Assembly: GCA_964628345.1 (NCBI GenBank)
Contig: CAZVLZ010000001.1
Location: forward strand, 8,318-59,987
Reading direction: 5' to 3'
Length of the DNA: 51,670 nucleotides
Source: an uncultured Candidatus Peribacteria bacterium
Lineage (GTDB): Bacteria; Patescibacteriota; Gracilibacteria; Peribacterales; Peribacteraceae
Shown: piece by piece, positions 13,893-43,692 of the stretch
How positions within the stretch are numbered: the first letter of the stretch is position 1
Layout of the letters: each line of letters starts with the position of its first letter
Position numbers and translations under genes: made by a program
Notes under the pieces: generated by a model
Database searches by the model: none
Told to the model about the DNA's origin: nothing
What the model saw: the letters and a program-made list of their open reading frames with translations, nothing else

Positions 13893-16800
13893 ATGACAGA
13901 ACCAGAAAAAAATCTTCGTTCTTCCGCCGATGATCTCTCTCGGGCAAATGTGGGGCGTCCTCTTCAGGACGGTGATTACCCCGCAACGGAACTGGATCGA
14001 TGGGAGCATATGTATTCCAGTCAGGGGAAGTACAGCGAGCAGGAACTGCAGATGCAGATTGATTATCTGCAGAATGTTCTGACCGGAAAAAAGTCCGTTC
14101 CCGAGGCGGTGGACACGGATGATGCGGTGCCGCTCTCATTTGCGCTGGCACGCGATTTGGTGTTGCGGATCCAGCTTCAGGAACGACTGCGACTGCAGCA
14201 GAGCGTGCAGCGCCGGCAGAAGACCGGCACACCGATCACGATGCTGCGACCGGACCCGCGCCATCCCGAGCAGGTGATCCCTGTGGACACGGCACCGGAT
14301 GCAGCACTGGAAAAAATCGAAGACCTGGATTGGCGGATCCGGGGTGCGCTGTACCAGCAATTCTGGATCCATTTTCTCCTGGAAGAGGTGCAGCGGTATG
14401 AAGCCGCGATGACTCGTTTCCCTTCATTGAAGAACGTGACACGTGATGCGGCACTGGAACAGATCGTACGCACGCAGTTGACGCAATTGAAACCGCTTCT
14501 GGAGCAATCGCTGCTCTGTGCACGCGTGCGGCGTCTTCGTACTGCCAAAGCGCCCGATGCGGAGATTCGTGAGGTTCTGAAAAATCTTCCTGCAGAAGCA
14601 GGGAAAGATCTCAATACCTACATGAGCAGGATCGATACCCAGATTCAGCAGGTTCTCGCGGTCACGGTCGGATTCCCTCTGCATCGCAAGGAGTGGCTGG
14701 GACTGAAGAAGACAGAGCGGGCGATTGCGGTTCCCCCCGTGTTCCGTTTGCGCAGTGAACTGATGCAGCGCCATATGGACGCCATCCTCAGGCGTGAGGA
14801 TGAACTGAGCGGGAAAATGGACAGCGTTTCCTCTGCAGAGAAGAAGGCACTCGCGCATGAACACCAGGAACTTATCGGTGACTATCTGGAATACAATGCC
14901 CTGCATCTGCGGAAATTCCGGCAGCTTCTGCATCTCTTCATCGAGCCGGGTCCGGTGTTTGCCACGGAAGAGGGATCAGGCAAGCCCGCTCATGAATTTC
15001 AGCCGGCTGGAGCCATGCGGACGGATTTGCTCCAGCAGCGTGGACGCGAACTCATGGCGCTCAATACGTATCTGGAACATATCGACAAGAGCGTGCTTGG
15101 CAATCAGGTGCTGGAGATCGACAAGCTGTTCGAGGATATTCTGATGACGGTTGCCGTTCCCGGAGGTATTGATGCCATTTTCAACGAAGCAGAAAAGGCT
15201 ACGTTTGTCTGGGAATTTCACGATGCGCCGTGGCGGTGGGGGCCGGGGCAGGTTCTTGGGGAATGGACTCCCCAGATGCGCCCGTGGCGGCGCAAGCAGA
15301 TTCTGGCACCTCTCTACAAGCATTTTCGTCTGCCGCCCACCACGCAGTGGGATACGCCCAGCAATGAGGAACCGCGTTCCTATCATGAGCTTTCGCCTGC
15401 GGAACAGGCGCAGTGGCTCAAGCGGTCCGATGTGCAGGAGCGCGTGGAGAGCGTGCGATCCATCGTGCGCAAATTTCGTGCGAGACTTGAGCCCGAAATG
15501 GCCGTCATGCGCGGATCCAATGCCATCCTCAACGATCTGCTCACGACGCAGACGCCGGCATCCATGGACGCAACGGAGAAACGTCCCATGAAGGAACTTC
15601 TGCGGGCAAAGAAGAAGCTCCCCGAGCAACTCTTTGCGGGGGAGAGCGGCGAGATTGCCGAACCCCCATCGGACTGGCCGGGCAATCAGACTTCCGAACA
15701 GGTTCTGCAGGATATTCTTGCCGCCGATACCGCGAAGGCCCGTGGGATGTACTTCCGGCTCATCGAGCGCGCCACGAGCGGCTCGGGGGCTTTTGAGCGG
15801 GAATATGCAGAGTACATCCGCGGGATCAATGCCAACCTCCAGTTCCACATTGATGCCAAAGATCTTCATACCTATGCGGCGGCGAGCGTCTGGCGGGAAC
15901 TCGGATTGCTGGCGGCAACCCTCGGAGCGGAAGTGGTTGGGGCGTACGTGTCTTGGAGACTCACAAAGTATGGTGTGCGCAAAGCGGCAGGGGCAGCCTG
16001 GCAGTCCACGAAGTGGGGTGTGCGTCAGGTGAAGAAAGGCGCGGATGCCCTGGGAGAGGAGAGCAGGTTGCGTGTCCGATCCAAACCCGCAGCAAAACCT
16101 TCAGTTCCACCTGCGACCCCGGCAGAATCAGCGGCTTCTCCAAAGCCGACTCCCGATCCCGCTGGATTTGAACAGCGTCTGTCAGAGGCGATGAGACAGG
16201 CGGAGAAGCCGATTGCACCTGCAGCGGCCAAAGAGGCTGCTGCTCCCGCTCTGGCACAACCGGTATCCGGACCCGAAGTGAAACCGAAAGAAAAAGGCCG
16301 TTTCCTCGGCCATGCAGGTTTTCTGCTGATGGAGGTGGCGACAGTTTCCGAAATTCTCCAGTCTCTGGAACGGACGGCGAATGCCGATCTTCTGAACGAG
16401 CGTGACACGCTCGATGCCGTTCGGGAAATCTGGAGCGATGCGGATCATGGTATCGATCTGGAACGAAGTGGCGACCAATTCTGGATGGCGGGGTACAACC
16501 GGAAGTACTACGAGGCGCTCAATGTGATTGGTGCCACGGGCAGGCGCGAATGGGTCGCGCAGGAGAGGGAAATCATCCGGCAGATCCAACGAACGCTCGA
16601 CATGCGCCTCATTCTGCAGAGCGGGGCAGTGCCAAGGGCTATTCCTCCACTTCCTGCCCTTGCCGATCGTACGTGGGATCCGGCATTCAGGATGCAAATG
16701 GAAGCTGCACATACGGCTCTGGTGCGAGAGGGGCAGCAGCTGGAACAACGGCGCACAGCACTCCTTGCGAGCGTGCAGCAGCTCCATGACAAACGTATGG

Positions 16801-17111
16801 GGGAGTTTCCCGTGTACCGGACGGATGCGCAGCTCAACCAGCAGCCGTTCACGCGTGACCGCGCAACGAAGAAGATCAACATCAATACCAGCGGCACCAC
16901 GCTCGGTTTCATTCCTGTGAAGTACAAGAACGGCCCCATCGAGCAGTTCCGCAAGGCGGGTCTCGTGCAACGCGAAGCCGACGCGTTCACGTTTGACGAG
17001 GCGCAGAAGGAACTGAAGACCCTCGATCAGTCACTGGAAGCATTTCAGAGAGACCTGCGGGCATATTTGTACGAGGGGGAACGCTTTGAGCGGATGCTGC
17101 GAACTCCGTAA
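13893..17111 (+). CDS. Large (1072 aa) hypothetical, mostly alpha-helical protein with central hydrophobic segments and a Pro/Ala-rich linker
   Basis: Uninterrupted ORF 24 nt after the previous gene. Hydrophobic segments are WRELGLLAATLGAEVVGAYVSW and FLGHAGFLLMEVATV. No enzymatic motif recognised. Confidence 0.75.
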   Translation: MTEPEKNLRSSADDLSRANVGRPLQDGDYPATELDRWEHMYSSQGKYSEQELQMQIDYLQNVLTGKKSVPEAVDTDDAVPLSFALARDLVLRIQLQERLRLQQSVQRRQKTGTPITMLRPDPRHPEQVIPVDTAPDAALEKIEDLDWRIRGALYQQFWIHFLLEEVQRYEAAMTRFPSLKNVTRDAALEQIVRTQLTQLKPLLEQSLLCARVRRLRTAKAPDAEIREVLKNLPAEAGKDLNTYMSRIDTQIQQVLAVTVGFPLHRKEWLGLKKTERAIAVPPVFRLRSELMQRHMDAILRREDELSGKMDSVSSAEKKALAHEHQELIGDYLEYNALHLRKFRQLLHLFIEPGPVFATEEGSGKPAHEFQPAGAMRTDLLQQRGRELMALNTYLEHIDKSVLGNQVLEIDKLFEDILMTVAVPGGIDAIFNEAEKATFVWEFHDAPWRWGPGQVLGEWTPQMRPWRRKQILAPLYKHFRLPPTTQWDTPSNEEPRSYHELSPAEQAQWLKRSDVQERVESVRSIVRKFRARLEPEMAVMRGSNAILNDLLTTQTPASMDATEKRPMKELLRAKKKLPEQLFAGESGEIAEPPSDWPGNQTSEQVLQDILAADTAKARGMYFRLIERATSGSGAFEREYAEYIRGINANLQFHIDAKDLHTYAAASVWRELGLLAATLGAEVVGAYVSWRLTKYGVRKAAGAAWQSTKWGVRQVKKGADALGEESRLRVRSKPAAKPSVPPATPAESAASPKPTPDPAGFEQRLSEAMRQAEKPIAPAAAKEAAAPALAQPVSGPEVKPKEKGRFLGHAGFLLMEVATVSEILQSLERTANADLLNERDTLDAVREIWSDADHGIDLERSGDQFWMAGYNRKYYEALNVIGATGRREWVAQEREIIRQIQRTLDMRLILQSGAVPRAIPPLPALADRTWDPAFRMQMEAAHTALVREGQQLEQRRTALLASVQQLHDKRMGEFPVYRTDAQLNQQPFTRDRATKKININTSGTTLGFIPVKYKNGPIEQFRKAGLVQREADAFTFDEAQKELKTLDQSLEAFQRDLRAYLYEGERFERMLRTP

Positions 17112-26187: not shown

Positions 26188-27366
26188 TCAGGCTCTCTCG
26201 TCTGCCAGACGCCGCACGGTCTTCTTGGCGAGGAAAGCGGTAACGATGAGGCTCGCGGTCAGGAAGATGACGTCAAAGCGCAGCCCCGTGACCGGCAGAC
26301 CCGTCACGCCAATGGTCGTGGTGGCGACGAGGGCGGAACCTGCATCGTTCTCTTCGAGATCGCTCGCCGAAACGCGTGCGGTGACGGTGGACGTCGTTCC
26401 CTGCTTCAGGGATTTGCTCAGTGTGAGGGGGACCGTGACGGTCCAGGTTTTGCCCGAGTAGATTTGGGGGATTTCCCAGGAGGCGACGGCGTCGTTCACC
26501 GTTCCGAAGCGCGGGAGCGGGGTGACGAATTGAGCGGTTTCCGGATCAATCTGCGCAGAGACCACCACGTTGTGGATCGTGCGTGCTCCCGTGTTCTTGA
26601 CGGTGATCGTTCCGCGTACGGAGCCGCCGGGCAGAGCCTCGGCCTGGTGCGCGGCCACCCACACGCGGACGGTGCGTCCTTCGTTGATGTCGGCCACCGG
26701 CTCCTCCGGTACGACGGAAGAGGAGGAGGACGAAGAGGAAGACGCTGTTCCACAGGTGAATTTGCCCGTGAACAGAAGTGCACTGTTGGCGTCGAGTGAT
26801 CGCTGGATCGGCGAGATCAGGTTACATCCCGCGCGTCTGTGGAAGGTGACGCGGTACTCGCCCGGAGCCATGCTGCTGTACGTGGCGGGGGTGAAACCGG
26901 TATCGCGGGAGTCATTGGGTCCCAGGAGTTCGAATGATGCCCCTTCGGGCTCACTCTGAATGACGATAGTTCCGTCGTAGCGGTACTTGATCGTGACGGT
27001 GATGGCATCGCCATCGGCAACCGTGAAACTGACATCACGGTCCACGGTGGACACGACGTCCACGCCGTTCTTCGTGACGGTGGTCGTCATCTTGGCGGAG
27101 GAGGGTGGGGAGAGGTGCAGCAGGTACGTGCCGTTTTCGGCGGCAGGCAGCTCTCTGAGCTCTTCTTCATTGATGGTGATCTGGGAACCGTTCGGGTACG
27201 TGATCGTGTACTGCCCGTACGCTCCCACGGGACTTTGCTGGAGGATCGTGACAGAACCGCTTGCGTGCGCGCGAGAGGCGACGAGCAGAAGGAGCGTCAT
27301 AGCGGCGCTGGAACAGACGGTACGCAGGGAGAACGTCATAGCGTATGAGGGAAAGAAGACCTTCAT
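26188..27366 (-). CDS. Sortase-anchored (LPVTG) surface protein with a PEGA-like head paralogous to the neighbouring SLH protein
   Basis: N-terminal signal peptide. The C-terminal tripartite sorting signal is LPVTG, then the hydrophobic LRFDVIFLTASLIVTAFL, then KKTVRR. A poly-Ser linker and a beta-sandwich region precede it. The ORF is open to a TTG at 27384. Confidence 0.8.
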   Translation of the reverse strand: MKVFFPSYAMTFSLRTVCSSAAMTLLLLVASRAHASGSVTILQQSPVGAYGQYTITYPNGSQITINEEELRELPAAENGTYLLHLSPPSSAKMTTTVTKNGVDVVSTVDRDVSFTVADGDAITVTIKYRYDGTIVIQSEPEGASFELLGPNDSRDTGFTPATYSSMAPGEYRVTFHRRAGCNLISPIQRSLDANSALLFTGKFTCGTASSSSSSSSSVVPEEPVADINEGRTVRVWVAAHQAEALPGGSVRGTITVKNTGARTIHNVVVSAQIDPETAQFVTPLPRFGTVNDAVASWEIPQIYSGKTWTVTVPLTLSKSLKQGTTSTVTARVSASDLEENDAGSALVATTTIGVTGLPVTGLRFDVIFLTASLIVTAFLAKKTVRRLADERA

Positions 27367-27418
27367 CCCGCTCAGGCGGGACAAAAGGGCAGTATTAAAC
27401 CAGTAATTTTGTGATATG

Positions 27419-30067: not shown

Positions 30068-33000
30068 TCACTGCAGAATGAACGTCAGAACGCCCATGAT
30101 GATGTACTGCGTATTCTCATTCACGGGGGGGGCGTCGGACACGGGCGTTCCGTTGATCGCGTACAGCCGCAGGTTTTCCAGCCACTTGCCGAACGTGAAG
30201 AACGTGTTTCGATCCTTGCAGGTTGTCTTGCAGGTTGCGGTGCCCGTATTGCTGTTGCACACGCCGTCCGAGCAGTCGTCTCCGTCGTCGCACTTCTCGG
30301 CCTCGCGACCCGAGGGAACGTTGTCCACGATCCCGTCTCCGCAGCGGGCGGCTTTGCAGTTCGTTCTGCAAGTCGCGTTGGGGCTATTGCTGTTGGCGGC
30401 ACCCTCGTCGCATTCCTCGCCTTCGTCCCGTGTGCCGTCGCCGCAGTTGGGCGGGATGCTGCTGTCGGAAGACGATTGGTTGTCCGCCGAACTGCTGCCA
30501 CCGTCGTCCATTCCGCAGTTGTAGCCCGATGCGGGATACTCGATGCACTGCGATGCACCGAAGAAGGAACCTCCAATGATGCTGTATTCGCACGTGGACG
30601 GATCGATGTCCTTAAAGCAGAGGCCGTAGCCCTTGCCTTCGATGCAGCAGTTGCCTTTTTCGGGGGCGGAACTCGAAGACTCTTCGGCGGCGGAGGACGC
30701 TTCGCCTCCCGCGCTCGATGGCTGACCGCCGCCGGCTACCCCTTTGAACATGCCGCAGAAGTCGTTGCACGACCCCGCATCATCCCAAGCGTACTCGCCG
30801 TTGCCGACCATCACTTTGGTCTCGCAGATCTCGGGAGTGTTCGTGTCGGCGACCGAGAGCAGGAACGCCGAGCAACTGGCGGTGGCGGGGTTGCAGCAGA
30901 AGCGCTTGTAGGTGCCAGCCGGGCAGCTGCCGACGCAGCTCGGCATGTCGGGGAATTCCATGCCGATCGCGTCGAGCGGATCGACGGGAGAAGAGGTTCC
31001 CGAGGTATCGGCGAGGAGGGTTGAGGCGAGCAGGGGACTCACCAGCGACTGGGCGAGACCTTCCTCTTCAGAAATCTGCCGGCAGCCGACGCAATTGGAG
31101 AGATTCAAGGGTCCCGGGAGGCTGGTGCAGACCACTTTTTCTTCTTTATCTGGAGCGACAACCTCGGAACAAGCGGAGGGACATGTTCCTTCCGCCCACC
31201 ATGTCTTCATGGTGCCTTTCACCTTGCCGACGGTGACGGACTTTCCATTGTAGCTTTCGCATACTTTTTTCCTGCCATCGAGCTTTGTTTGGTCCTGCAT
31301 GTCACCGAGTTCCTTCGAGATGAGAGTTTTGTACGAATCATTCCAGCCGCTCTTCAGATCAGCGATATCCATGCAGATCGAATAGAGTGGGGCCTGCGTA
31401 TCGTTTCGGGTTGCTACCCCGCAGCAGGCAGTGGGCTTCTGGCCGCAGCGGGTCAGGAAGTCCCGTGGGCATTTGGTGAGCGGCTTCTTGTCCGCGCCGA
31501 CTAGTCGTCTGTCCTCAGGACAATCCTCGGCCGTTTCGCAAGTGGGGTTATCTCTGTCCTCCCCGCAGCAGGCGACTGGTTGCGGGCAGTCCACGGCACA
31601 CGTCTTTTGTTTTGCAGCTTCTGTGTCGAGGGTGACGATCTTGCCAGTAGAGTCCTTGGCAGGTTTTTCACACTTCTCTTGGAATTGTGGCGTGCATTTT
31701 CCTCCATCGCAGCAGGCGATTTTTTCTTTTTCCGGTGCGCACGGTGAACCTGTCGCACTCGTGCAGGCGGCCTCAGTCGCAAACGGCGCGCCTACGAGGC
31801 CCGTGTGACCCGGAATGGCCGCGCAATCCTCCGTATCCTTGTTCTCCTGTGCGATTTCGACGGGCAGGCACGTTTTGCTTTCCTCCTTGCAGCAGTAACG
31901 GTACTCCTTCTTCTCGCAATCCGATTCTTTGCAGGCGGACAGGGATTTGAACGGCGCCTTCCCGCTCCATGAGCATGTCTCGGTGCTTACATCAACCGGG
32001 ATGCATTGTGCCTTACTTTGATCATAGGTGAGAGAGCAGCAGGATTTCTTGGGTTCCTTACACTTCGCGGTGAGTTCTTCCGTGCACTGCTTGTTGTCGC
32101 CATCCAGTTTGATCTTGCACTTGCTGGGATTGTCGGGGACTTCACACTTGAGGCCGCCCGTGGTCGTATCCTCGGTGCAGCAGGCGACTTTATCCGGTTT
32201 ACAGGTTTTGTCGCAGGTCGCTTTCTTCATGGGTGAGCCCACCGGACATTTGTCACCGAGGAACAGCGAACATCTTTCATTTTCATTTTCTTTGGTCGGA
32301 TCGCAGCAGGTAGTGGCAACATCCCCGCAGAGCGATTGAATCCCTTCATCATCCGTTGGGCATACGGGGACCTGGTTTTGACTGGGGCATTTGCTCTTGT
32401 CCACATCGCCGCATGTCCATGTTTTGTTGTCGGAAGTCTGGCAGCAGGGCACTTGTTCCGCTGGTTTGCAGGGATCGTTGGGCGAACAGGGATCATTTGC
32501 CGTCATGTCGCCTTTGGTGGTGCCCTGGCAAGCGTCTTTGCTTGTAACCGCCGAGCAGACGTTATCCGTACAGCAGGCGATCCTCTTTTCGGTTTTGCAC
32601 TGGCTCTGAATGGATGTGGAATCCGTCGGACAGGCAGTACCTTTCGAGCCCAATGCTTTCTCGCTGCCACAGGATTCCTTGAGCGCACAATCGTAACTTC
32701 CGTCCGATTTTTGCAGACAGCAGGGCAATTCGCTGCCACAGGTGATGGCGCTGCAGGAATTGGAAGTGCTGATGGTTTTCGTTGTGTCACAGGCGGAACG
32801 GAGCTGATCTGTCTTACAGGAACCATCGACACAGCAGGCAACTTTCTGCGCCGGTGCCTTGCAGATCAGTTTGAGTTCTTCCGAGCAGACATCACCCCCG
32901 ATCGGTTTATTCGGATCACAATTGGATTTCGAAACGTTCGTTGCGCACGCACTACCATCTTTGGGGCAGCACGTGACCAGCTGACAAGGATTGGGCTCGC

Positions 33001-36000
33001 AAGACGTAATACTGAGATTCTTTGAAATGCCTCCCTTTGCTTCGCATTCCGATCGGACAAGTTTTGTGCAGGTGCCGTTACCCAGACAGCAGACCATGGG
33101 TTGCGCGGTGCCACTGCAGGCCTGCTTGAGGCTATCGGAACACGATGATCCGATGGGCTTATCCGGATTGCAATCTGCCCGTAGGGCGCCGGTCACACAC
33201 TTGTCTTCGAGAACATCCGATTCTTTTGCGACACAGCATGCGACGCGCTCGCAGGGATTGGGAGAGCAGGAGGTCGTGCTAGTCAGGAGTTTTCCCTTGC
33301 ATTCCTGAGCGGAGGTTAATGAACAAGAGGAGTCGGCATTGCAGCAGGCAAATTTTCCTTTTGCGTGACGGTTGACGCACGCCGCGGTACAGGCGTGTGC
33401 ATCTGCTGCTGTGTAGGCAGTGCCAACGTAGGCAGTGCCATAACCGGACGCGGCTGAACAGTCGCCCGTTGCAGGCAGGTAGACTGCGGAACAGTAGGGT
33501 GATCCCCCTTGTGGAACGGTAGCGGGGCAGCAGTATCGCAATCGTTTGTCTTCGGGGGGAGGACACTGTTTTCCGCATTCCGTCTCCGATGGGAACTGCG
33601 TCGCGTACACGATGTTGTGTGATGCGAGGTCGCTGAGAGGGCAGCCCCCGTTCTGTTTCAGTGTTGTGGAGGAGATTTTGGTGCACTGTGCTTTCTCCGT
33701 CAGTCCTGTCCCGCAACACCATTTATCCGCATCCTCGCATTTGTAGTTCGCAGGACATTGATTATTGGTGTGGACGGTATCTCCCTTGCAGAAGGTCGCG
33801 CTCTTGACTGCCAGAACATCTGTTTGGCAGCGAGCAGTGCCGCTTGTTGCGGACTTGGGACAGCAAGCGACCAGTTCGCACGGATTCGGTGAACAGGTGG
33901 AGTAACCGGTGCGGTAGGTGCCCGAACACTTATCTTTTGCGGTGAGCGAGCAGATCCCTTTTCCTGCATTGCTGGTACAGCAGACGCCTTCAGGTTTACA
34001 GGAAAGCTCGGAGCAGGAATTGGAGGTTTTTATTGGGTAATTGCTATCGCAGAGACTCAAATTACTGACATCAGTTTTGCACGTTTTTTCACCCGATCCG
34101 CTGCCGACACAGCAGGCCACTTTCTCACCACAGGCGAGTTGGACCTGTGTTGGATCGGAGGGGCAGGAGGATGTGGATGCCGGCGTTTTACAGGCGCTTT
34201 TCAGCTCCGGAGCGCAGGACCACTGATCATTCTTCTTCGTGCAGCAGGGGATCTTCTCATTCTCGCCGCACTTGGACGCGTCGCCGCTAGGCAGACAGAC
34301 GTTTGCGCAGGTACTCCTGGCGGCAGAGATGCATTCCCATCCGTTCCCTTTTTTGTTGCAGCAGGACACCTTTTCATCCGCTTTGCAGCTGGGGTCAGGT
34401 CCCAGTGTGGTGCACGTTCCGCTCTCGTAGACCTTGGAGAAGAATTCGAGATTGCCTCCGTTCTTGCTGTCGCAGGTTTTGCCCTCTTCCAGGTAGAGTC
34501 CCATGCAGGAGCCGCTTGTCGTGCAGCAGTCGACGTACTTCTTGGGTGGCTGGTTACACTGGGTTTTGTCGGTGCAGCCGTTTTCGAACGTCGTACCCTT
34601 CTGGCACTTCGCGCCTTCTTCGGATTTCTTCACCGTGATGCAGGACCAGACGGGGTTACCACTTTCATCCTTCTTAGCGGCGCTCTCCACCGGGCAGCAG
34701 CCGATCGTGTCTTTCTTATTGCACTGCGCCAGTTCATCCGAGGAGCACTTGTCCGCAGTGGCTTTGCCAAGAGAGATTTTGTTCGTGGAACTCTGGCAGT
34801 CACCCGGTTTGGTCACCGAACAGGACCACGCAGCGCTCTCCGATGCCCGCTCGCAGCAGGAGACTTTTTCTTTGTCAATATTATCGCACCTCTTCACCAG
34901 TTCTGCCCTGGAAATATTATCACAGGTATCTCCCACGAGTTGTTCCTTGCACTCCGTGGAATTTTTCAATGCGCAGTTCACGATCTGAGTTCCCGGAGTC
35001 GCTATCGAATCTTCGTACACGCAGCAGGGGACGACATTCGGACATTTCGCTTTCGAACAGAGTCCTGCGGTATTCACGAACGTACCACCCACTGCGTTGC
35101 AGGCAGCTTTCGTCATGATGTCGCAGCCCGTATCTTTGATTTCGGTGCTGCAGCACGGCTTTTCGCAAAACCCGGGAAGCGGCGATTCTCTTGCGCTGAA
35201 ATCATTTTTCGAACTGCCGTCCGGATTGCACTTCGATTTCGTCGTCTTTTGGGGACCCTGTGCCGTGCAGCACCAGCCTGGCGGATCACAGAAGTCGTTA
35301 TCGCATGATTTCGTTCCCATTGCTGAAGCCTTCGTGAAGGTTCCCGCATAGGAGGTGCACAGGTCGGCGGGGGATTTGCCCGTTGAATCGAAACCACTGT
35401 TGTAACTGAGCCAGAGCGAGGTGGTTCCGGCGAGGGAACCGCTTTTTAAATTACAGCAGCAGCCGGATTCCATGGACTTGTCGGGCCCGCCATTGCATTT
35501 TTCTTTGCACTGTTCCGCGGTGCCGGGGATCACGGTACCGGCGTGGTAGATCACGTCACCGACGGTTTCGGTCGTCGAGCAGGCAGTGGTGGACTCACCG
35601 TTCGCATTCCCTTCGTAAGTGCAGGACCAGGACACGGTGTACGGCTGGTTCGTGGCGTCGGTCGGTTTCGTATTCTTATAGTTCTTGTTCGGCGTGGAGA
35701 TCATGCGGCAGCAGTTCTTCTTCTCCTTGGGCGGGCAGCAGCAGTAGCCGCCGGTGACGGAATGGATCTGGTAGCTTCTCGCTTCGCAATCGCTTTTTGC
35801 GTCGTCTTCTCCTGCCCACCAGCATCCCATGTAGGTGCCCTCGCTGCCGGCACTGATCTTTGCGCAATCCTTCTCGACGCATGCGCTCGCCGATTGGACT
35901 ATCTTACTGCTGGGGCAGGTTCCCATTCGCACTTTGGATACGCGTTTTGACGCGTCGGCGTTGCCGGGGTCAGTGCAGCACAGTTCCGTCAGTTCGACCG

Positions 36001-37570
36001 GGCAGGCGGGGTTGATTGCCGCCCCGAACAGAGAAGCCCACAGGCGGGAGAAGAAGAGGGAGAACGGTCCTTGCGGGTAGCCGCTCTCCGCGCAGACATT
36101 ATCCCGGCCGTAGGCGTGGGCGTCTTCCCCTTTCTTTTTGCAGTCCTCTTCGCACATGTTGTCGACGCACATCTGCATGCTGCCGCTCGTGAAGCAGCAG
36201 GAGACCTTCTTCGTGCATGTCGGAGCGGAAGACGCAGGTTCCGATGACGATGTCGCAGGGGCGGATGATTCTGCCGAGGATGCCGGTTCAACGGAGGAAG
36301 ATTCGGATGATTCCGCGTCGGAGGAGGCAGCACCACTGCCGCAGGGATTCAAATCGCAGAGCCCGTTTCCGCCTCCGAACCAAGGATCTTCGGCGGGCAC
36401 ACCGTATTCATTGCACACGCTCAGGCGCACGTCATCGAAACAAGAGGTATAGACACAGCAGGACACGAGTTCCTCGGACGAGGATGAGGAGGCCGCAGGC
36501 TCACTGCTTGAAGAAGGCTCCGCACTGCTGGATTGCTCCGCGAGCGTGCACGTATCCGTGGATGACGCGCAGGGAGCCGTGCCGCAACAGCCGAACTGGG
36601 GACTGACGTACTGGCCGCCCGTGTTGCAGCAGGGAATAGCTTGCGTGCAGGGATGACTGCCGGAAGGCAGGCAGGCTCCCCCCGGCGGGCAGGCGGGAAC
36701 GTGGTGCTGATCCATGCACTGCTGCTGGTTCATCGCGCTGCTCTCGCTCGAAGAGGATTCTGGTTCGGAAGAAGCGCTACTGCCGCAGCCGGCGATTGGA
36801 TCGTGGCGGCACTCCATTCCGTCGTAGAAATCGGACGTGCAGGGGTCCCCGTCGTCGTCGCAGTCGGGAGCGCAGCCTTCGATCGGGTAGTGTTCGCACG
36901 TCTCCGCGCTCGTTCCTGCATCGTAGGTGCAGGGGTCCCCGTCGTCGCAGCAGACGTACATGCCGAAGCACCGGTGATCTCCCTCCATACACATCGTCGC
37001 CCAGCAGGGATCGCCGCTCGCACATTCCTCATCATTCCTGCAGCAATCCGCGATGGGATCGTGGGTGCACCCGCCGCTGGTGCAGGTATCCGTCGTGCAC
37101 ACATCGCCATCGTCGCATCCGTTCGGACAGTCGGGAGCCGCTTCTCCACACGCGAGACAGTCGATATCTCCAGCATGGAAGAAATGGGGACACTCATTCA
37201 GGGACATCCAGCCGAGGCACTCTCCGGGTACGGGTCCGCAGCAGATGCCCCACTCGGTTGCCGGGGAGGAAGGACTGGTCGTGATTCCGCCCGAGCACAC
37301 GCAGAGCGCCGTGCACTCTTCGGGATTGGACGGGTTGCAGGAGAACGAGGATGTACAGGCTCCGCCATCCGGGCAGGAACCGCCGCAGGAGGGCCAGAGG
37401 GAATTCGTGCACGTATCGGTGACCTGGGCACGCAGCACGTTGGCCGTGGCCGATGTGTAATAGGGAGCAGGGGGGAGCTGCCCTTCTCTATTCTGTTCGA
37501 CCAAGATGCCGGTGAGCACCATCGTGAGGAAGGTACCCAGTGCGAGTTCGGTGAATGTGCTTCGCCACAT
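30068..37570 (-). CDS. Giant membrane-anchored cysteine-rich repeat protein, about 2500 aa, unassigned family
   Basis: Single open frame. N-terminal TM (TELALGTFLTMVLTGILV), DGDPCT.D.C...H.PI..C repeats and Ser-rich linkers. By hand count there are about 40 vicinal CC modules. C-terminal CGDG....EECD repeats resemble the Myxococcus cysteine-rich repeat, followed by a terminal hydrophobic tail. I preferred the ATG at 37570 (TATAGT lies 10 nt upstream); the ORF is open to a GTG at 37624. Confidence 0.9.
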   Translation of the reverse strand: MWRSTFTELALGTFLTMVLTGILVEQNREGQLPPAPYYTSATANVLRAQVTDTCTNSLWPSCGGSCPDGGACTSSFSCNPSNPEECTALCVCSGGITTSPSSPATEWGICCGPVPGECLGWMSLNECPHFFHAGDIDCLACGEAAPDCPNGCDDGDVCTTDTCTSGGCTHDPIADCCRNDEECASGDPCWATMCMEGDHRCFGMYVCCDDGDPCTYDAGTSAETCEHYPIEGCAPDCDDDGDPCTSDFYDGMECRHDPIAGCGSSASSEPESSSSESSAMNQQQCMDQHHVPACPPGGACLPSGSHPCTQAIPCCNTGGQYVSPQFGCCGTAPCASSTDTCTLAEQSSSAEPSSSSEPAASSSSSEELVSCCVYTSCFDDVRLSVCNEYGVPAEDPWFGGGNGLCDLNPCGSGAASSDAESSESSSVEPASSAESSAPATSSSEPASSAPTCTKKVSCCFTSGSMQMCVDNMCEEDCKKKGEDAHAYGRDNVCAESGYPQGPFSLFFSRLWASLFGAAINPACPVELTELCCTDPGNADASKRVSKVRMGTCPSSKIVQSASACVEKDCAKISAGSEGTYMGCWWAGEDDAKSDCEARSYQIHSVTGGYCCCPPKEKKNCCRMISTPNKNYKNTKPTDATNQPYTVSWSCTYEGNANGESTTACSTTETVGDVIYHAGTVIPGTAEQCKEKCNGGPDKSMESGCCCNLKSGSLAGTTSLWLSYNSGFDSTGKSPADLCTSYAGTFTKASAMGTKSCDNDFCDPPGWCCTAQGPQKTTKSKCNPDGSSKNDFSARESPLPGFCEKPCCSTEIKDTGCDIMTKAACNAVGGTFVNTAGLCSKAKCPNVVPCCVYEDSIATPGTQIVNCALKNSTECKEQLVGDTCDNISRAELVKRCDNIDKEKVSCCERASESAAWSCSVTKPGDCQSSTNKISLGKATADKCSSDELAQCNKKDTIGCCPVESAAKKDESGNPVWSCITVKKSEEGAKCQKGTTFENGCTDKTQCNQPPKKYVDCCTTSGSCMGLYLEEGKTCDSKNGGNLEFFSKVYESGTCTTLGPDPSCKADEKVSCCNKKGNGWECISAARSTCANVCLPSGDASKCGENEKIPCCTKKNDQWSCAPELKSACKTPASTSSCPSDPTQVQLACGEKVACCVGSGSGEKTCKTDVSNLSLCDSNYPIKTSNSCSELSCKPEGVCCTSNAGKGICSLTAKDKCSGTYRTGYSTCSPNPCELVACCPKSATSGTARCQTDVLAVKSATFCKGDTVHTNNQCPANYKCEDADKWCCGTGLTEKAQCTKISSTTLKQNGGCPLSDLASHNIVYATQFPSETECGKQCPPPEDKRLRYCCPATVPQGGSPYCSAVYLPATGDCSAASGYGTAYVGTAYTAADAHACTAACVNRHAKGKFACCNADSSCSLTSAQECKGKLLTSTTSCSPNPCERVACCVAKESDVLEDKCVTGALRADCNPDKPIGSSCSDSLKQACSGTAQPMVCCLGNGTCTKLVRSECEAKGGISKNLSITSCEPNPCQLVTCCPKDGSACATNVSKSNCDPNKPIGGDVCSEELKLICKAPAQKVACCVDGSCKTDQLRSACDTTKTISTSNSCSAITCGSELPCCLQKSDGSYDCALKESCGSEKALGSKGTACPTDSTSIQSQCKTEKRIACCTDNVCSAVTSKDACQGTTKGDMTANDPCSPNDPCKPAEQVPCCQTSDNKTWTCGDVDKSKCPSQNQVPVCPTDDEGIQSLCGDVATTCCDPTKENENERCSLFLGDKCPVGSPMKKATCDKTCKPDKVACCTEDTTTGGLKCEVPDNPSKCKIKLDGDNKQCTEELTAKCKEPKKSCCSLTYDQSKAQCIPVDVSTETCSWSGKAPFKSLSACKESDCEKKEYRYCCKEESKTCLPVEIAQENKDTEDCAAIPGHTGLVGAPFATEAACTSATGSPCAPEKEKIACCDGGKCTPQFQEKCEKPAKDSTGKIVTLDTEAAKQKTCAVDCPQPVACCGEDRDNPTCETAEDCPEDRRLVGADKKPLTKCPRDFLTRCGQKPTACCGVATRNDTQAPLYSICMDIADLKSGWNDSYKTLISKELGDMQDQTKLDGRKKVCESYNGKSVTVGKVKGTMKTWWAEGTCPSACSEVVAPDKEEKVVCTSLPGPLNLSNCVGCRQISEEEGLAQSLVSPLLASTLLADTSGTSSPVDPLDAIGMEFPDMPSCVGSCPAGTYKRFCCNPATASCSAFLLSVADTNTPEICETKVMVGNGEYAWDDAGSCNDFCGMFKGVAGGGQPSSAGGEASSAAEESSSSAPEKGNCCIEGKGYGLCFKDIDPSTCEYSIIGGSFFGASQCIEYPASGYNCGMDDGGSSSADNQSSSDSSIPPNCGDGTRDEGEECDEGAANSNSPNATCRTNCKAARCGDGIVDNVPSGREAEKCDDGDDCSDGVCNSNTGTATCKTTCKDRNTFFTFGKWLENLRLYAINGTPVSDAPPVNENTQYIIMGVLTFILQ
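30125..30132 (-). repeat. C8 homopolymer (G8 on the plus strand) near the 3' end of the giant gene
   Basis: Read directly; it encodes A-P-P. It is followed on the coding strand by GTGAATGA, which supplies TGA stops in both alternative frames. Confidence 0.9.
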
Positions 37571-37679
37571 CTTGCCGTTGACTATAGCAGGAGCTGATCC
37601 GCAGAAAACGTCGTGGGGTTGCACGATTCAATGATCATGCTCTGACAATCCGCCAGCGATCTGCGCTCTGTTTTCCGGT

Positions 37680-38564
37680 ATGATGCGGGACATGGCTGGA
37701 TCTCTGTTGTTGTCGGCGATGCTCCTTCCGCTCTCGCTCTCGGTTTCCCTCGCGGAGCACCCGTCCGCATCCGTGCCGCCCGGCGCACAGAGGGTCGTGA
37801 TGCTTGAACTCACGTTCAGGGCGTCGTGCAGCGGAGATGTTGCCGTTCATGCCGTCACGCTCACGCATGCCGGTATGGGCGCTCTGCGCGATGTCGCGTC
37901 CGTGTACGCCGTGCACGACGGACAGCGGATCTCACGCGGGCGGGCGCTCTCTTCCGGTGACGGCACGGTGACGCTCACGTTCCGGCCGTCACTCGTCGTA
38001 CCCGCATGCGGCACGCAGGAGGGCGTGATCATGGCCAACTTCTCTTCCGATGCCGCCGCAACCGGGGAACACCGTCTGGCGCTCCTCACGGCTGGGGATA
38101 TCGACGCCGGTGATGCACGTGTGACGCTTGAGGGCAGTGCCGCGGCGCCGGTGCGCAGAACCGTGGGGGCGACGCAGGGGAGCATTGCGGCGGAATTGCT
38201 GCCGCTCCTGCAGCGTGTCACGTACGGAGACCGCCGCACCGTGGCGCGCCTCCGGCTCACCGCGGATGGAACGTACGATCAGGAACTCCAAGCCATCATG
38301 CTCACCAATGACGGGAGCGCGCGGAACAGCGATCTACAGAATCTCACGCTGGAGTCGAGCCGCGGGCAGGTACTTGCCCGTCTTCCGACACTGCGCGATC
38401 GCACCGCCCCCTTCGTCCTTCCTTCGCCACTTTTTCTCCAGCGCGGGGCGGTCGTCCTGCTCACCGTTCGGGCGGACGTGCGTGCTTCGCGACGACGCAC
38501 GATTGCCTTTACTCTCGAGGAACCCGGCGACCTCGTCGCGAGGCGCGCGCGGTCACGGCGATGA
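37680..38564 (+). CDS. Secreted hypothetical protein with two similar beta-sandwich-like halves
   Basis: Signal peptide (GSLLLSAMLLPLSLSVSLA). Internally repeated patterns are VVMLELTF...HAVTLTHAG and ARLRLTADG...AIMLTNDGSARNSDLQNLTLES. An alternative ATG at 37692 has TATGAT 7 nt upstream. Confidence 0.65.
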   Translation: MMRDMAGSLLLSAMLLPLSLSVSLAEHPSASVPPGAQRVVMLELTFRASCSGDVAVHAVTLTHAGMGALRDVASVYAVHDGQRISRGRALSSGDGTVTLTFRPSLVVPACGTQEGVIMANFSSDAAATGEHRLALLTAGDIDAGDARVTLEGSAAAPVRRTVGATQGSIAAELLPLLQRVTYGDRRTVARLRLTADGTYDQELQAIMLTNDGSARNSDLQNLTLESSRGQVLARLPTLRDRTAPFVLPSPLFLQRGAVVLLTVRADVRASRRRTIAFTLEEPGDLVARRARSRR

Positions 38565-38652: not shown

Positions 38653-39633
38653 ATGAAACGATTTGTTCTCCTCCTCGTGCTTGCCTCCCTCGTCGGGATT
38701 TCGGTTTACCTCTTTTTGCGCGGACCCTCCACCACCGGTCCGTCCGCACGTACGGAGGAGGTGATGGCTCTCGCCGCGCAGAAGAGTCGCGATCTGCAGT
38801 CGCTTCGCCTGAATGCCTCCGGTCACTTCCGCCTCGAGGACGGGACGATCCCGATGTCGGGGACCGTGACGTTGGACGGTGTTCTGCAGGATGCGGGGAA
38901 CAGCGTGCAGATGGGCGTTTCGGTGGACGCGCTCATTGCTCCGGGGGGGGGCGGCAGTCAGACATTCCGCCTGCAGGGTGCGGGGGAGATGATCGTCGTC
39001 GGCAAAAAAGAACTCTCCTTCAAGGTGGAGTCGCTCTCGACGGAGCCGGATGGCGCACTCTTTCAGCCGGAACTGCTCGCACTGCTGACCGGACAATGGT
39101 GGACGGTGCCTGCTCCCGCGTCCGATCAGGCGGCCACGGTGCCGGGTGGGACGATGACCCCTTCGCCGAGCGTGCTCCGTGCGCAGGCGCAGGTGGTGCG
39201 CGTCACCGCCGATCGCGGCACCGACATGATCGATGGCTCTGAGGCTTACCACTACGATGTCGCGCTGGATAGCGAGAAGTTGCTTGCCTATCTCGAAGAG
39301 GTGGCTGCCGCCCGCCAGGAGACCATGGACCGCGAGAGTCTTCGGGCGGTCATTGCGGCACTGGATGCGTCGGGGGAGATGTGGATTGATACAGAGACGT
39401 ACGTGCTGAAGAAAGTGACGTGGGATATCAGCAGGCTCCAGACGGGGCAGGGGACTCTGAGCGGATCCTTCGCGGTCTTGCTCAGCGACTTCGACGCAGC
39501 GCCCGTCATCCTGCCTCCCGCTGACGCAAAGCCATTCTCTCCGTCGTCGTTCTTCCAACTCGATCCAACGCAGAATGTTCCCGGCGGAACACTCACTCCC
39601 GAGCAACTTGAGCAGTATCAGTCTCTCTTTTAA
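38653..39633 (+). CDS. Secreted or membrane-anchored hypothetical protein, possibly a LolA/LppX-like fold
   Basis: N-terminal anchor MKRFVLLLVLASLVGISVYLFL, then beta-rich sequence. The fold suggestion is by pattern only. Confidence 0.6.
   Translation: MKRFVLLLVLASLVGISVYLFLRGPSTTGPSARTEEVMALAAQKSRDLQSLRLNASGHFRLEDGTIPMSGTVTLDGVLQDAGNSVQMGVSVDALIAPGGGGSQTFRLQGAGEMIVVGKKELSFKVESLSTEPDGALFQPELLALLTGQWWTVPAPASDQAATVPGGTMTPSPSVLRAQAQVVRVTADRGTDMIDGSEAYHYDVALDSEKLLAYLEEVAAARQETMDRESLRAVIAALDASGEMWIDTETYVLKKVTWDISRLQTGQGTLSGSFAVLLSDFDAAPVILPPADAKPFSPSSFFQLDPTQNVPGGTLTPEQLEQYQSLF
38943..38951 (+). repeat. G9 homopolymer inside the 38653-39633 CDS
   Basis: Read directly: ccg ggg ggg ggc ggc encodes PGGGG at codons 97-101. 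Confidence 0.9.
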
Positions 39634-39661: not shown

Positions 39662-41704
39662 ATGACCCCAACCCCTTCCACTCCCATTGACGGCATTGCG
39701 GCGCCTCAGCCTGCCGTGCCTGCGCAAACGGCCACCCCTCCGTCTCCACTGCAACGGAAGGAGCAGACGGTATCGCCGCGGCGGTTCATGAAGCGCCTCC
39801 TCCTTGTACTCATTGTGGTCCCGTACGTCACCTATGCGCTCTGGTCCGCGTACCTCGTTGCCGTGCTGCCGGACGGGACGGGCACCTATGACCGGTTGAT
39901 TCCCATCGGGACCGTGCTGGCGATCGCGTGCGCGGTCATCCTGGTGTCCGTCGGTCTCTTCGCGTTCCTCCGGATCGGTGCGGCGGAAGTCATCCCGCTG
40001 CCGCGCCGGAGGCTGGCCGCCATCAAGGTTGCGGGTGTGATTCTGCCCGGTTTGCTCATCAGCGCGTTCACGCCGTTCGCCATCCGACGCGAGCCTTCTC
40101 TCGCGTTCACCGTCGTTTCGCCCGATGCCACTCAGGTGATGGTGGCGCCGCTCTCGGTGACCTTCAGTATCCAGCCTGCATTGGATGTCCTGGCGCGCAG
40201 AGAGCTTCTGCCGGAGAAATTCGTTTGGGATTTCGAAGGGGACGGCAAGATGAACGCCGAGACATCCGATCCCGAGGTGTCGGCGTATTTCGACCGTCAG
40301 GGCCAGTATACGGTTGTCGTGGTGATCTTTCTCAAGAACGGGGACACGCGCCGCATTTCCCAGGTGCTGACCATTGCGCGCGCGGTGTTCTCCGTGGATC
40401 CGGTGCAGCCGATCATCGACGAGCCGGCACGCCTTTCGATCGCCCATCTCGTGACGAAGAAGGAGGATGTCGAGCAGGCGGAGTGGGATTTTGACGGAAA
40501 TGGCGAGGTCGACCTGACCAGCAAGTCCCTCGATGTCGTGCATACGTTCTTTGCGGAGGGACCGACGAAGGTTTCGGTCAAAGTGACGCTCATGACCAAG
40601 GCACAGCAGACGTACGAGCGGGAAATCGAGGTGCTGCGCACTCTTCCACTGCCGTTCCCCGTGACATTCATTGCCGAGCCCGAGCATCTCATCGGTCCTT
40701 CCCCGTTCGGCGCCGTGTTCCGCGTGGAGACGGAGGAACCCGTGCGCGTCATTCTCTGGAACTTCGGCGACGGTGCGGATGCCCGCGGCGACCGCGTCGG
40801 TCACACGTTCTCGCAGAACGGCGTGTTCCCCGTGACGGCCGAGGTGCGATCGGAGGCGGGGCCCGTCGCCAAGATCACCAAGATCGTCCGTGTCACGGAG
40901 GACTTGCCGCTGCCGGACCTGACGTTCACCGGATCGCCCGAAGTGAAGAGCGGCAACAAAATTTCGGGGGAGGTTCCTGTGATCGTTGATCTGAAACCGC
41001 GCACGACCGTGCCGCTCATCGAGTTCTTCTGGGAGGCGCCCGAGGCGACCTCGGTGGGTTCCACGGAGACAGCGGTGCAAGCCGTTTACCGGCGCGAAGG
41101 AACCTACACACTCTGGCTCATCGCGCAGGACCCCGATGGGCGCGTGATGCGCAAACCCATGACCGTTGAAGTACTACCGCCGGTATCCGCAGTCGTCATT
41201 CAGATGGACCCGGAGGGAGGCACGGCGCCGCTCACCGTGCGCCTCGATGCATCCGAGACATCGATTCAGGATGAGCAGATCAGCGGCTTTGAGTGGACGT
41301 TCAGCGACGAGCCTCAGGGAGCGGCGCACCAGCAGGGGGCGCAGGTCTCGCACACGTTCCAGAAGTCCGGCACGTACGAGATTTCGGCGAAAGTGTTCAC
41401 CACGAGCGGCAAGGAGTACGCGGCGAGCAAAACCATCGTCGTGCGTGCGCCCGTCCTCGATGCATGCATCAGGGCGAGCCGCACGGAGGGCAAAGCGCCT
41501 CTCGGCGTCCAGTTCTTCAGTGACTGTTCCACGGAGGGGCAGCAGACGACCTATGCGTGGGATTTCGGGGACGGATTCGCGAGCGATCAGAAGAATCCCA
41601 TTCATGACTTCCAGCTTGCCGGCAGCTACACTGTCTTCCTCACGCTCCGTGACGGCGACAGCGTTGCGCAGTCCGATCCCCTCATCATTACCATCCAGCC
41701 ATGA
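39662..41704 (+). CDS. Membrane-anchored PKD-repeat protein
   Basis: Pro-rich N-terminus and 3-4 TM helices, then at least 5 PKD-like repeats: WDFEGDG, WDFDGNGEVD, WNFGDGADA, FEWTFSDE and YAWDFGDGFAS, each followed by H.F...G.Y.V. Confidence 0.85.
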   Translation: MTPTPSTPIDGIAAPQPAVPAQTATPPSPLQRKEQTVSPRRFMKRLLLVLIVVPYVTYALWSAYLVAVLPDGTGTYDRLIPIGTVLAIACAVILVSVGLFAFLRIGAAEVIPLPRRRLAAIKVAGVILPGLLISAFTPFAIRREPSLAFTVVSPDATQVMVAPLSVTFSIQPALDVLARRELLPEKFVWDFEGDGKMNAETSDPEVSAYFDRQGQYTVVVVIFLKNGDTRRISQVLTIARAVFSVDPVQPIIDEPARLSIAHLVTKKEDVEQAEWDFDGNGEVDLTSKSLDVVHTFFAEGPTKVSVKVTLMTKAQQTYEREIEVLRTLPLPFPVTFIAEPEHLIGPSPFGAVFRVETEEPVRVILWNFGDGADARGDRVGHTFSQNGVFPVTAEVRSEAGPVAKITKIVRVTEDLPLPDLTFTGSPEVKSGNKISGEVPVIVDLKPRTTVPLIEFFWEAPEATSVGSTETAVQAVYRREGTYTLWLIAQDPDGRVMRKPMTVEVLPPVSAVVIQMDPEGGTAPLTVRLDASETSIQDEQISGFEWTFSDEPQGAAHQQGAQVSHTFQKSGTYEISAKVFTTSGKEYAASKTIVVRAPVLDACIRASRTEGKAPLGVQFFSDCSTEGQQTTYAWDFGDGFASDQKNPIHDFQLAGSYTVFLTLRDGDSVAQSDPLIITIQP

Positions 41705-42924: not shown

Positions 42925-43692
42925 ATGCACCCACACCAAAAGCGGTCTATTGCCTACGTTCTGGCCCTCCTGAGTATTGTGCTATCGCTCTTTCTCTGGG
43001 CGGGTATCGTGCGCAGTTTGGTGGCTTCCGTCGCGCAGGTTCCGGCAGAGAACCCCATGCCGGTTGCTTCTTCCGGCAGCATGGCTTCGTCATCCGGTAC
43101 CGCCGTGCCCGTCGCGGTTCCCGTCCGGACCGTGCAGATGCTGCCGCAGATCCACTTTGCGGGGAGCAAAGCATCGCAGGCGGATGATCGGGAAAAGCGC
43201 GATGAGCTCTCGCAGTGGGAGATTCGGGAGATGGCGGCGCTGTCCATCCCGTCGCTCGGTATCCGTTCAACCGTGTTCCTCCCGTCGCGGCGGTACTGGG
43301 ATGCGCGGGACTGGGATACGCTCGAACGCCAGATGCAGGTGGGGCTGCTCTACGGAGTCGTTTCGTACCCGCATGCGGTTCTCCCCGGCGCAGACGGTAG
43401 CATTGTGATTGCCGGGCATTCGAGTCCGCCCAGTGACCGCGCCCAGGAGAGCCGCTTCGGTTCGATCTTCGCCGCGCTGCCGTCCATTGCGGACCATGCC
43501 GAGATCCTGCTGCGTACGGGGAGCGCGACCGTGACCTATGTGGTGGAGGACACGATGATCGTGCCTGCCGGCAACACGGAGATTCTGACGGGATCCGAGG
43601 TGGCGGGGAGCGTCCTGAAGCTCATCACCTGCTATCCGGTGGGGTCCACGAAGGAGCGGTTTGTGGTGATCGCAAAGAAGCTCGGGCAATAA
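42925..43692 (+). CDS. Sortase family transpeptidase
   Basis: N-terminal TM anchor, catalytic His context IVIAGHSS, Cys context LKLITCYP and a downstream Arg (KERFVVIAK). Confidence 0.85.
   Translation: MHPHQKRSIAYVLALLSIVLSLFLWAGIVRSLVASVAQVPAENPMPVASSGSMASSSGTAVPVAVPVRTVQMLPQIHFAGSKASQADDREKRDELSQWEIREMAALSIPSLGIRSTVFLPSRRYWDARDWDTLERQMQVGLLYGVVSYPHAVLPGADGSIVIAGHSSPPSDRAQESRFGSIFAALPSIADHAEILLRTGSATVTYVVEDTMIVPAGNTEILTGSEVAGSVLKLITCYPVGSTKERFVVIAKKLGQ

Follow-up and report, generated by a model that had tools for sequence, protein, structure and literature searches.

A giant cysteine-rich protein of a Peribacteria bacterium is built from six-cysteine modules related to a widespread, uncatalogued bacterial repeat

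Large cysteine-rich extracellular proteins have been described in Peribacteria. They were regarded as probably extracellular, showed weak similarity to the Myxococcus cysteine-rich repeat, and were proposed to participate in attachment (Anantharaman et al. 2016, PMC4736985). Table S4 of the same paper lists, among others, the open reading frame (ORF) 522 of Candidatus (Ca.) Peribacter riflensis. A gene of this kind is present in the DNA analyzed here, a stretch of 51,670 nucleotides (the window) from an uncultured Ca. Peribacteria bacterium (assembly GCA_964628345.1, contig CAZVLZ010000001.1, positions 8,318 to 59,987). The gene encodes a Cys-rich protein of about 2500 amino acids (aa), hereafter the giant. 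With 2500 aa, 10.9% Cys, an N-terminal helix and a C-terminus resembling the family TIGR02232, the giant fits the class of 2016, whose members exceed 1000 aa, contain approximately 5–11% Cys, and carry an export signal and a weak similarity to the Myxococcus repeat. An earlier interpretation of the window, made from the DNA letters and their translations and called the sequence-only reading below, had presented the giant as a candidate new family of surface or adhesin repeats. As to the protein class this does not hold: the class, its weak likeness to Myxococcus repeats and the proposed role in attachment were all published in 2016, with ORF 522 in the list. The protein class and its interpretation are thus already known, and what is new is the anatomy of the modules from which the protein is built. 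The giant is a strongly diverged variant within a known, uncharacterised class of Peregrinibacteria surface proteins and within a widespread, uncatalogued family of six-Cys repeats.

The giant is the positional orthologue of ORF 522. A metagenome scan with an alignment of the C-terminal region led to a 1.25-Mb contig (L086) that carries another orthologue, whose frame of 2229 aa with 219 Cys matches RIFOXYC2_FULL_PER-ii_58_32_522 (2227 aa, 219 Cys, annotated as "lipoprotein"). Both loci have the same order, with a PKD protein, a protein of 338 aa and one of 292 aa in P. riflensis followed by the giant and purL, and in the published P. riflensis gene table ORF 522 lies between ORFs 519–521 and purL, as in the window. 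Both proteins have the N-terminal helix, their C-terminal heads are 60% identical over 198 aa, and ORF 522 contains about 25 six-Cys modules. They come from different species and differ in the array, which is only approximately 20–30% identical, and in length, the window protein being approximately 270 aa longer and having more modules. In the paper describing ORF 522 (PMC4736985) the modules were not dissected or related to other phyla.

The sequence-only reading had counted about 40 CC doublets in the giant at distances of roughly 40–60 aa. The count was reproduced, with 41 non-overlapping doublets (43 if overlaps are allowed) spaced 36–62 aa apart over aa 785–2067. The raw number of doublets exceeds the expectation from composition modestly (43 versus approximately 30 in the whole protein; 28 versus 20±4 in the core). 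It is not the CC count but the periodic six-Cys unit that lies far beyond chance. When the protein is cut at each CC, 29 consecutive segments covering aa 824–2067 contain exactly six Cys each; one tally of such CC-to-CC segments gives 28. A regular expression finds 25 modules in the core (aa 781–2080), where 2000 shuffles gave 1 on average and at most 5. The module has the pattern CC-x-C-x-C-x-C-x-C and is present in about 30 tandem copies (approximately 33 are counted in the stalk model discussed below), with extra six-Cys modules outside of the array at aa 386, 2240 and 2323. The sequence context proposed earlier for the doublets was found to be less regular than claimed: V/I/P-x-CC, said to be usual, occurs at 19 of the 41 doublets, and C-x-PNP-C, said to be a frequent lead-in, occurs in only three modules, with one further CSPNDPC.

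When 125 modules of the window protein and of five relatives are aligned, Cys is invariant at columns C4, C5, C11, C19, C34 and C39. A Gly in loop 3 is near-invariant (111 of the 112 occupied cells), and K-V/I-A is favoured just before the CC. The loops of the window protein vary widely in length (3–19, 4–15, 6–23 and 2–12 residues, from the first to the last). Two subtypes can be distinguished by the last loop, which has 3–5 residues in type A (CSPNPC-like) and 7–10 residues in type B. The types alternate strictly across 14 modules at aa 1424–2060, which implies either that the array grew by duplication of two modules at a time or that the A–B pair is a structural unit.

No known family was found to cover this module. 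The whole giant and ten overlapping pieces of it gave nothing in Pfam at E≤10 except for a sub-threshold match to Dicty_CTDC in the N-terminal block, a family search with hidden Markov models (HMM) of aa 785–2518 in six pieces found no Pfam family at E≤10, and NCBIfam had no match for the giant. EGF, GCC2_GCC3 and furin-like domains, which the earlier reading had named as candidates to be checked, are not matched by the central pieces at E≤10. Its statement that the central module fits no known family therefore stands as far as Pfam and NCBIfam models are concerned. It does not stand in the sense of a module private to this protein or lineage, as the module is shared with a widespread bacterial repeat.

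A profile of the window family was searched against 1.84 billion representative proteins and matched 729 of them at E≤1e-3 and 214 at E≤1e-10. The best matches (E down to 4e-50) are arrays of a more regular repeat, GACCFxDGSCxxxTExxCxxxGGxYQGDGTxCxPNPCPQP, which is called canonical here. In 149 proteins, 1734 canonical modules with loops of 5, 7, 13 and 4 residues were identified, with a median of ten modules per protein; the arrays comprise 5–35 tandem copies in large, secreted-looking proteins. Aligned by hhalign, the window-family module and the canonical repeat match with 96.4% probability (E 1.3e-9), and the subtypes taken separately with 96.7% (type A) and 87.7% (type B). A genome scan using a single canonical protein as the query found the repeat in Planctomycetota (Phycisphaerae, Planctomycetia, Isosphaeraceae), in Ca. 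Eisenbacteria and in some unclassified metagenome-assembled genomes, and these genomes often carry many paralogues each. The canonical arrays have no Pfam or NCBIfam model either, and no description of the repeat was found in a literature search. A word-indexed protein search with an alignment of two consecutive modules gave no match. By these profile comparisons, the window module is homologous to this widespread six-Cys repeat, which is found in Planctomycetota and Ca. Eisenbacteria, and forms a diverged branch of it. The window module retains the Cys arrangement (CC-x5-C-x7-C-x13-C-x4-C in the canonical form) and the conserved Gly, whereas its loops are far more variable and the GACC, DGSC and PNPCPQP motifs are mostly lost. 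Furthermore, the window protein contains the derived type B alternating with type A, and the terminal domains and genomic context of the canonical proteins are unlike its own. Many canonical proteins end with the short motif SWGxIKxRYR, found at the C-terminus of 32 of the 149 top matches (for example P0009, P0012, P0014, P0024 and P0078), which may be an uncharacterised sorting tag. Several have an N-terminal domain of approximately 190 aa, sometimes repeated (GPNxGGxLxxH...HPxQGxxFADDxxPxxLDP...GxLGF). Neither the motif nor this domain has a Pfam or NCBIfam model.

The module was predicted by AlphaFold2, from the module alignment, to form a beta-hairpin (residues 2–5 and 11–14) followed by a short helix, with a mean predicted local distance difference test (pLDDT) score of 83.8. 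The prediction of consecutive modules, suggested in the sequence-only reading, yielded a confident two-module model for aa 1509–1588 (pLDDT 89.4, predicted template modelling score 0.61), in which the one type-B module modelled has an extra C-terminal helix. A Foldseek search of the PDB with the single module returned only chains of iRhom2 and iRhom1. The best match is 8snl_B (residues approximately 570–606), with a query-normalised TM-score of 0.70, a root-mean-square deviation (rmsd) of 1.2 Å and 32% identity over 34 columns; its E-value of 1.7 is weak, as would be expected of a query with only 39 residues. The two-module model gave a weak match to iRhom1 only, and a viral fold library searched by Foldseek gave noise, with no E below 1, mostly rmsd above 3 Å and 12–20% identity. 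Sequence profiles led to the same proteins. In an HMM search of PDB sequences iRhom chains were the only matches below E 1, at 0.04 for the window-family profile and at 1.1e-3 (iRhom1) and 0.02 (iRhom2) for the canonical profile, whose next PDB match is codakine (E 1.4). The profile match spans two stretches per iRhom chain (approximately 102–154 and 201–236 in 9xy4_A) and brings all six Cys and the Gly into register. iRhom was not matched by a control profile in which the loop residues had been shuffled and the Cys spacing kept. Pairwise hhalign of the module against iRhom gave 76% (P 2e-5).

The matched region of iRhom is the iRhom homology domain (IRHD; PDB 8snl, 9xy4, 9q7y and 9o58), the only PDB relative of the module by sequence profile and by fold. 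The IRHD contains eight disulfides and was reported in 2024 without a structural relative, its fold being described as "unprecedented" (PMC11248996); an earlier prediction had divided it into two structured halves (PMC8233286). It differs from the giant in being a single globular domain with 16 Cys between transmembrane (TM) helices TM1 and TM2 of a rhomboid pseudoprotease, in containing at most two module-like units plus insertions, and in being eukaryotic, with a role in the regulation of ADAM17. The giant was rejected as an IRHD protein: only one TM helix is present, a rhomboid domain is lacking, and the similarity is confined to a sub-module of 34–38 residues. The iRhom link is a lead with borderline E-values, and common ancestry is unproven. 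The Cys of the module are read as disulfides because the iRhom relatives use theirs in this way, and each module of the predicted fold presumably holds three. A broader reading, which we put forward tentatively and with some doubt, is that the CC module represents a large uncatalogued disulfide-stapled superfamily, abundant in Planctomycetota and Ca. Eisenbacteria, which would have diversified in Peregrinibacteria into an A/B hypervariable host-contact stalk and been the evolutionary or structural source of the two structured halves of the IRHD.

The gene model of the giant is sound, and the product is a real membrane-anchored protein of approximately 2500 residues. As described earlier, it is one unbroken frame on the minus strand (30068..37624), with 2518 codons and GTG at 37624 as the first. 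Residue numbers in this text refer to the 2518-aa frame. Met19 (nt 37570) is probably the true start, because a protein deposited at NCBI (P0001), 2500 aa long and 100% identical to the window giant, begins there and the orthologues P0002 and P0004 begin at the corresponding Met. The 18 codons before Met19 (37571–37624, minus strand) are partly kept as protein in P0003 (APAIVNGKM) and in the P. riflensis locus (TPAIVLCKM), and the choice of the start codon therefore stays tentative. A repetitive protein in a metagenome-assembled genome may raise the suspicion that the frame is an artefact of repeat collapse or chimerism during assembly. We regard this as extremely improbable. Tandem Repeats Finder and a direct-repeat search found short, imperfect repeats only and no long or tandem direct DNA repeats within the gene, and collapse is implausible because the modules share a mean column identity of only about 15%. 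The identical protein at NCBI and the collinear orthologues in five other assemblies, one of them on the 1.25-Mb contig matching a published complete genome, also argue against an artefact.

A homology search of 5.8 billion proteins found six relatives of the giant, one of them named Candidatus Peregrinibacteria. The positional orthologues in the fetched loci (L001, L003/L004 and L005) have 1502–2398 aa and lie in the same gene order. Conservation was profiled as the identity of non-Cys residues against four orthologues in 50-aa windows. It is approximately 0.6 at the N-terminal helix, 0.2–0.4 over aa 150–800, 0.06–0.2 in most windows of aa 1150–2150, and 0.4–0.68 over the last 300 residues. 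The termini are thus conserved, and the array is hypervariable apart from its Cys and one Gly. The number and length of the modules also vary between orthologues. The shortest one, P0006 (L003/L004, 10001–14509; 1502 aa, 25% Ser, 7% Cys), has most modules replaced by a Ser-rich spacer and keeps the C-terminal head. Another member of the family, P0005 (L002, 7156–14556, minus strand), is found outside the conserved locus and adjoins a second giant gene, whose product (2466 aa) has no Pfam match and does not have the termini of the family.

The layout of the giant and of the genes around it is given in Table 1. The giant contains 274 Cys and 11.0% Ser. A single TM-like segment at aa 23–43 bears out the N-terminal hydrophobic anchor of the sequence-only reading, and the other blocks which it had listed were recovered as well: three copies of the DGDxCT...H-x-PI-x-C repeat at aa 172–285, Ser-rich linkers (seven windows with at least 40% Ser, some overlapping, which make up about five regions), and a hydrophobic C-terminal end, given there as 12 residues and found to be the last 11 (YIIMGVLTFIL). 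The non-repeat regions (aa 549–784 and 2067–2295) had no PDB sequence match at E≤10 by phmmer.

Table 1. Features of the giant and of neighbouring genes in the window (aa numbering of the 2518-aa frame)
Feature	Position (nt)	Strand	Remark
Giant Cys-rich surface protein gene	30068..37570	-	from probable start Met19, 2500 aa
N-terminal transmembrane signal-anchor (putative), FTELALGTFLTMVLTGILV, aa 24-42	37499..37555	-	sole 19-mer with Kyte-Doolittle >1.4; highly conserved, orthologue identity 0.6
N-terminal Cys-rich stretch, aa 70-124, 8 Cys	37253..37417	-	no Pfam match at E≤10
CC module (aa 125-159); three DGDxCT repeats resembling Dicty_CTDC, plus a short CC unit (aa 160-290)	36755..37252	-	PF00526 25.5 bits
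Ser-rich linkers with isolated CC modules, aa 291-475; one six-Cys module, aa 386-428	36200..36754	-	
Cys-dense non-repeat region, aa 476-784, two CCC triplets, moderately conserved in orthologues	35273..36199	-	no database match
Six-Cys module array, aa 785-2066	31427..35272	-	opens with one 4-Cys unit at aa 785
Alternating A/B sub-array, 14 modules, aa 1424-2060	31445..33355	-	
Non-repeat region, aa 2067-2239	30908..31426	-	no database match
Two conserved C-terminal six-Cys modules, aa 2240-2290 and 2323-2370, Gly/Ser linker between	30515..30907	-	
Two Myxococcus-type CGDG...EECD Cys-rich repeats, aa 2393-2471	30212..30448	-	TIGR02232 15.9 bits
Conserved C-terminal tail RNTFFTxGxWLxNLxLYAINGTP...ENTQxIxxGxLTFILx, aa 2472-2518	30071..30211	-	ends in 11 hydrophobic residues
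294-aa protein, clear signal peptide, no Pfam match	37680..38564	+	divergent neighbour of giant
326-aa protein, N-terminal hydrophobic stretch, no Pfam match	38653..39633	+	divergent neighbour
680-aa 3xPKD protein	39662..41704	+	divergent neighbour
DUF11/PEGA protein, ends in LPVTG, hydrophobic/TM span and KK/RR tail	26188..27384	-	classic sortase signal
Sortase	42925..43692	+	~15 kb from DUF11/PEGA gene, same conserved order, three genes from giant
1072-aa ORF without Pfam match	13893..17111	+	almost no Cys, no evident signal peptide
600-aa ORF without Pfam match	8570..10372	-	N-terminal hydrophobic segments
423-aa ORF without Pfam match	7293..8564	-	

The terminal repeats of the giant resemble known families. 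The N-terminal DGDxCTxDxC...H-x-PI-x-C units are its sole Pfam signal and resemble Dicty_CTDC (PF00526), which scores 17.1 bits with the whole protein and 25.5 bits with aa 128–335, below the gathering threshold of 27, and covers only the N-terminal block. The orthologues P0002 and P0004 carry precomputed PF00526 matches, which are weak where graded. The CGDG-x-EECD-x-N-x-C-x-C units near the C-terminus, at aa 2394–2465, had been likened to the Myxococcus repeat (TIGR02232/PF13948), and the comparison is supported. There are only two copies, which score 15.9 bits with TIGR02232 (E 0.0086), under its curated cutoff of 20.8; four of the six orthologues match this model (best 2.6e-5). PF13948 (DUF4215) is not matched by the window protein and is matched by three of the six orthologues (best 1e-3), and P0007, which carries PF13948, matches the giant at E 9e-13. 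The Myxococcus repeat is unrelated to the central module of the giant. Across the six loci checked, and likewise in the metagenome scan, the 47-residue tail that follows was found only in orthologues, and it was for this reason rejected as a shared sorting signal; a word-indexed protein search with the tail alignment gave no match.

Four further modes of anchoring or sorting were considered and rejected. The giant does not look like a sortase substrate, since the tail (...ENTQYIIMGVLTFILQ) has neither LPXTG nor a basic end, and the lack of a basic C-terminal end also excludes a MYXO-CTERM-type tag. The label "lipoprotein" of the P. riflensis orthologue does not apply, as there is no lipobox, the h-region is followed by ...TGILVEQNREG, and the first Cys lies approximately 50 residues past Met19. 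A type IV pilin-like N-terminus was dismissed as well, with no Pfam match at E≤10 for aa 1–130 and no Gly before the FTEL motif.

The gene order around the giant is kept in six assemblies: the window itself, the four loci that were fetched, and Ca. P. riflensis according to its published gene table. One half of the locus encodes an S-layer homology (SLH) protein, flavokinase, Mur ligase, RNase HII, Lgt, sortase, TsaD, the 3xPKD protein, a protein of approximately 335 aa and one of approximately 300 aa. The divergent half encodes the giant, PurL, the DUF11 protein, an SLH protein and MurC. Surface genes are thus interleaved with housekeeping genes (purL, tsaD, mur ligases). The sequence-only reading had seen one system in the giant and the surface genes around it, which the data do not bear out: no functional link of the giant to its neighbours was found, and the evident substrate of the sortase is the DUF11 protein, the giant having no LPXTG. 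The DUF11/PEGA protein and the sortase make up a Gram-positive-style anchoring pair in a genome of the Candidate Phyla Radiation (CPR). The 294-aa and 326-aa proteins are placed between the giant and the PKD protein in all six of these assemblies. Among its neighbours they are the foremost candidate partners.

An extracellular, disulfide-stapled fibre is the most economical reading of these features. We consider it rather probable that the giant is a surface fibril of a Peregrinibacteria (Peribacteria-like) CPR bacterium, in which a disulfide-stapled stalk presents the conserved C-terminal head for attachment; its export topology, disulfide bonding, rod shape and attachment role are all inferred. 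The N-terminal hydrophobic helix would act as an uncleaved Sec signal-anchor with an N-in/C-out orientation. The helix is single and conserved, and no lipobox, LPXTG or pilin-type site is present. The remaining chain would be exported and oxidised by a DsbA/DsbB-type system, and each of the six-Cys modules would fold as a small hairpin-plus-helix unit. The modules, joined by linkers of only 3–8 residues, would make up a stiff stalk with intervening Ser-rich spacers that may be glycosylated; its length would be very roughly on the order of 100 nm if 2.5–3 nm per module is assumed. The distal head, composed of two modules, the two Myxococcus-type repeats and the hydrophobic tail, would bind or insert at a partner cell or surface, and the array would be free to vary outside its Cys scaffold, as for an exposed extender.

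The known giant repeat adhesins, such as LapA, SiiE and MpIBP, have an RTX or bacterial immunoglobulin-like (BIg) extender of variable copy number between a cell-proximal anchor and a conserved distal head. The window protein has a similar size and the same anchor–extender–head logic, and the likeness is a functional analogy. It was rejected as a member of this group, since the Pfam and NCBIfam searches showed no BIg or RTX domains, no type I secretion signal and no Ca-binding repeats. Its extender is presumably stabilised by disulfides instead, and its anchor is an N-terminal TM helix. Giant surface proteins have also been implicated in host contact in another CPR bacterium, and CPR bacteria are described as epibionts or predators (PMC8080830).

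Several points speak against the attachment fibril. No ligand-binding domain was recognised in the giant, and no DsbA, DsbB or VKOR gene was found within the window; the related complete genome of Ca. P. riflensis contains dsbB and two DsbA-like genes. The signal-anchor may be cleaved instead of retained, the conservation profile rests on few sequences (6–7 orthologues), and the distal end could be fastened to the cell through the conserved hydrophobic tail. The last point leads to the view that the giant is an envelope scaffold tied at both ends, with the tail in the membrane, wall or S-layer, and serves as a protective or structural coat and not as an adhesin. The strong conservation and hydrophobicity of the tail fit this view, as does a locus that adjoins SLH proteins, the sortase-anchored DUF11/PEGA protein, the sortase, Lgt and Mur ligases. 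We nevertheless hold it to be unlikely. The giant has no SLH domain, LPXTG or lipobox, the terminal hydrophobic run of 11 residues is too short for a helical membrane span, and a hypervariable array in orthologues of 1502–2398 aa fits an exposed extender better than a component of a lattice. The flanking genes are moreover largely housekeeping genes, and their synteny may only reflect the stability of small genomes.

A long stalk with a conserved hydrophobic tail at its presumed distal end might alternatively be a contact-dependent fibre for the delivery of an effector or toxin, the head being the payload inserted into the membrane of the partner, which would suit epibionts or predators (PMC8080830). 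However, the C-terminus is conserved and not polymorphic, none of the adjacent genes encodes a toxin, an immunity protein or a secretion system, and the giant has no Pfam or NCBIfam toxin domain, which makes such a function improbable. We give still less credit to a metal- or redox-buffering protein, whose CC thiols would bind metal or serve as a redox sink. Although 11% Cys and many vicinal CC pairs would be expected of such a protein, the conserved spacing of the Cys in a fixed unit of six, the confidently predicted fold, the use of the Cys in disulfides in the iRhom module, the probable extracytoplasmic topology and the DsbB and DsbA-like genes of the related genome all point to a structural role of the Cys.

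The surface fibril thus remains our preferred reading of the giant. The six-Cys repeat is a very common bacterial extracellular repeat, present in at least 729 protein clusters and often in 10–35 copies, which is missing from Pfam and NCBIfam. The addition of a module model would annotate thousands of giant proteins now called "hypothetical". If the iRhom link is true, a domain of medical importance that had been described as unique in structure would gain its first relative. CPR bacteria depend on cell contact, and to our knowledge almost all of the molecules mediating it are unknown. The giant is a conserved single-locus candidate for such a molecule, with an anchor, a variable stalk and a conserved head, and it could be expressed and tested.

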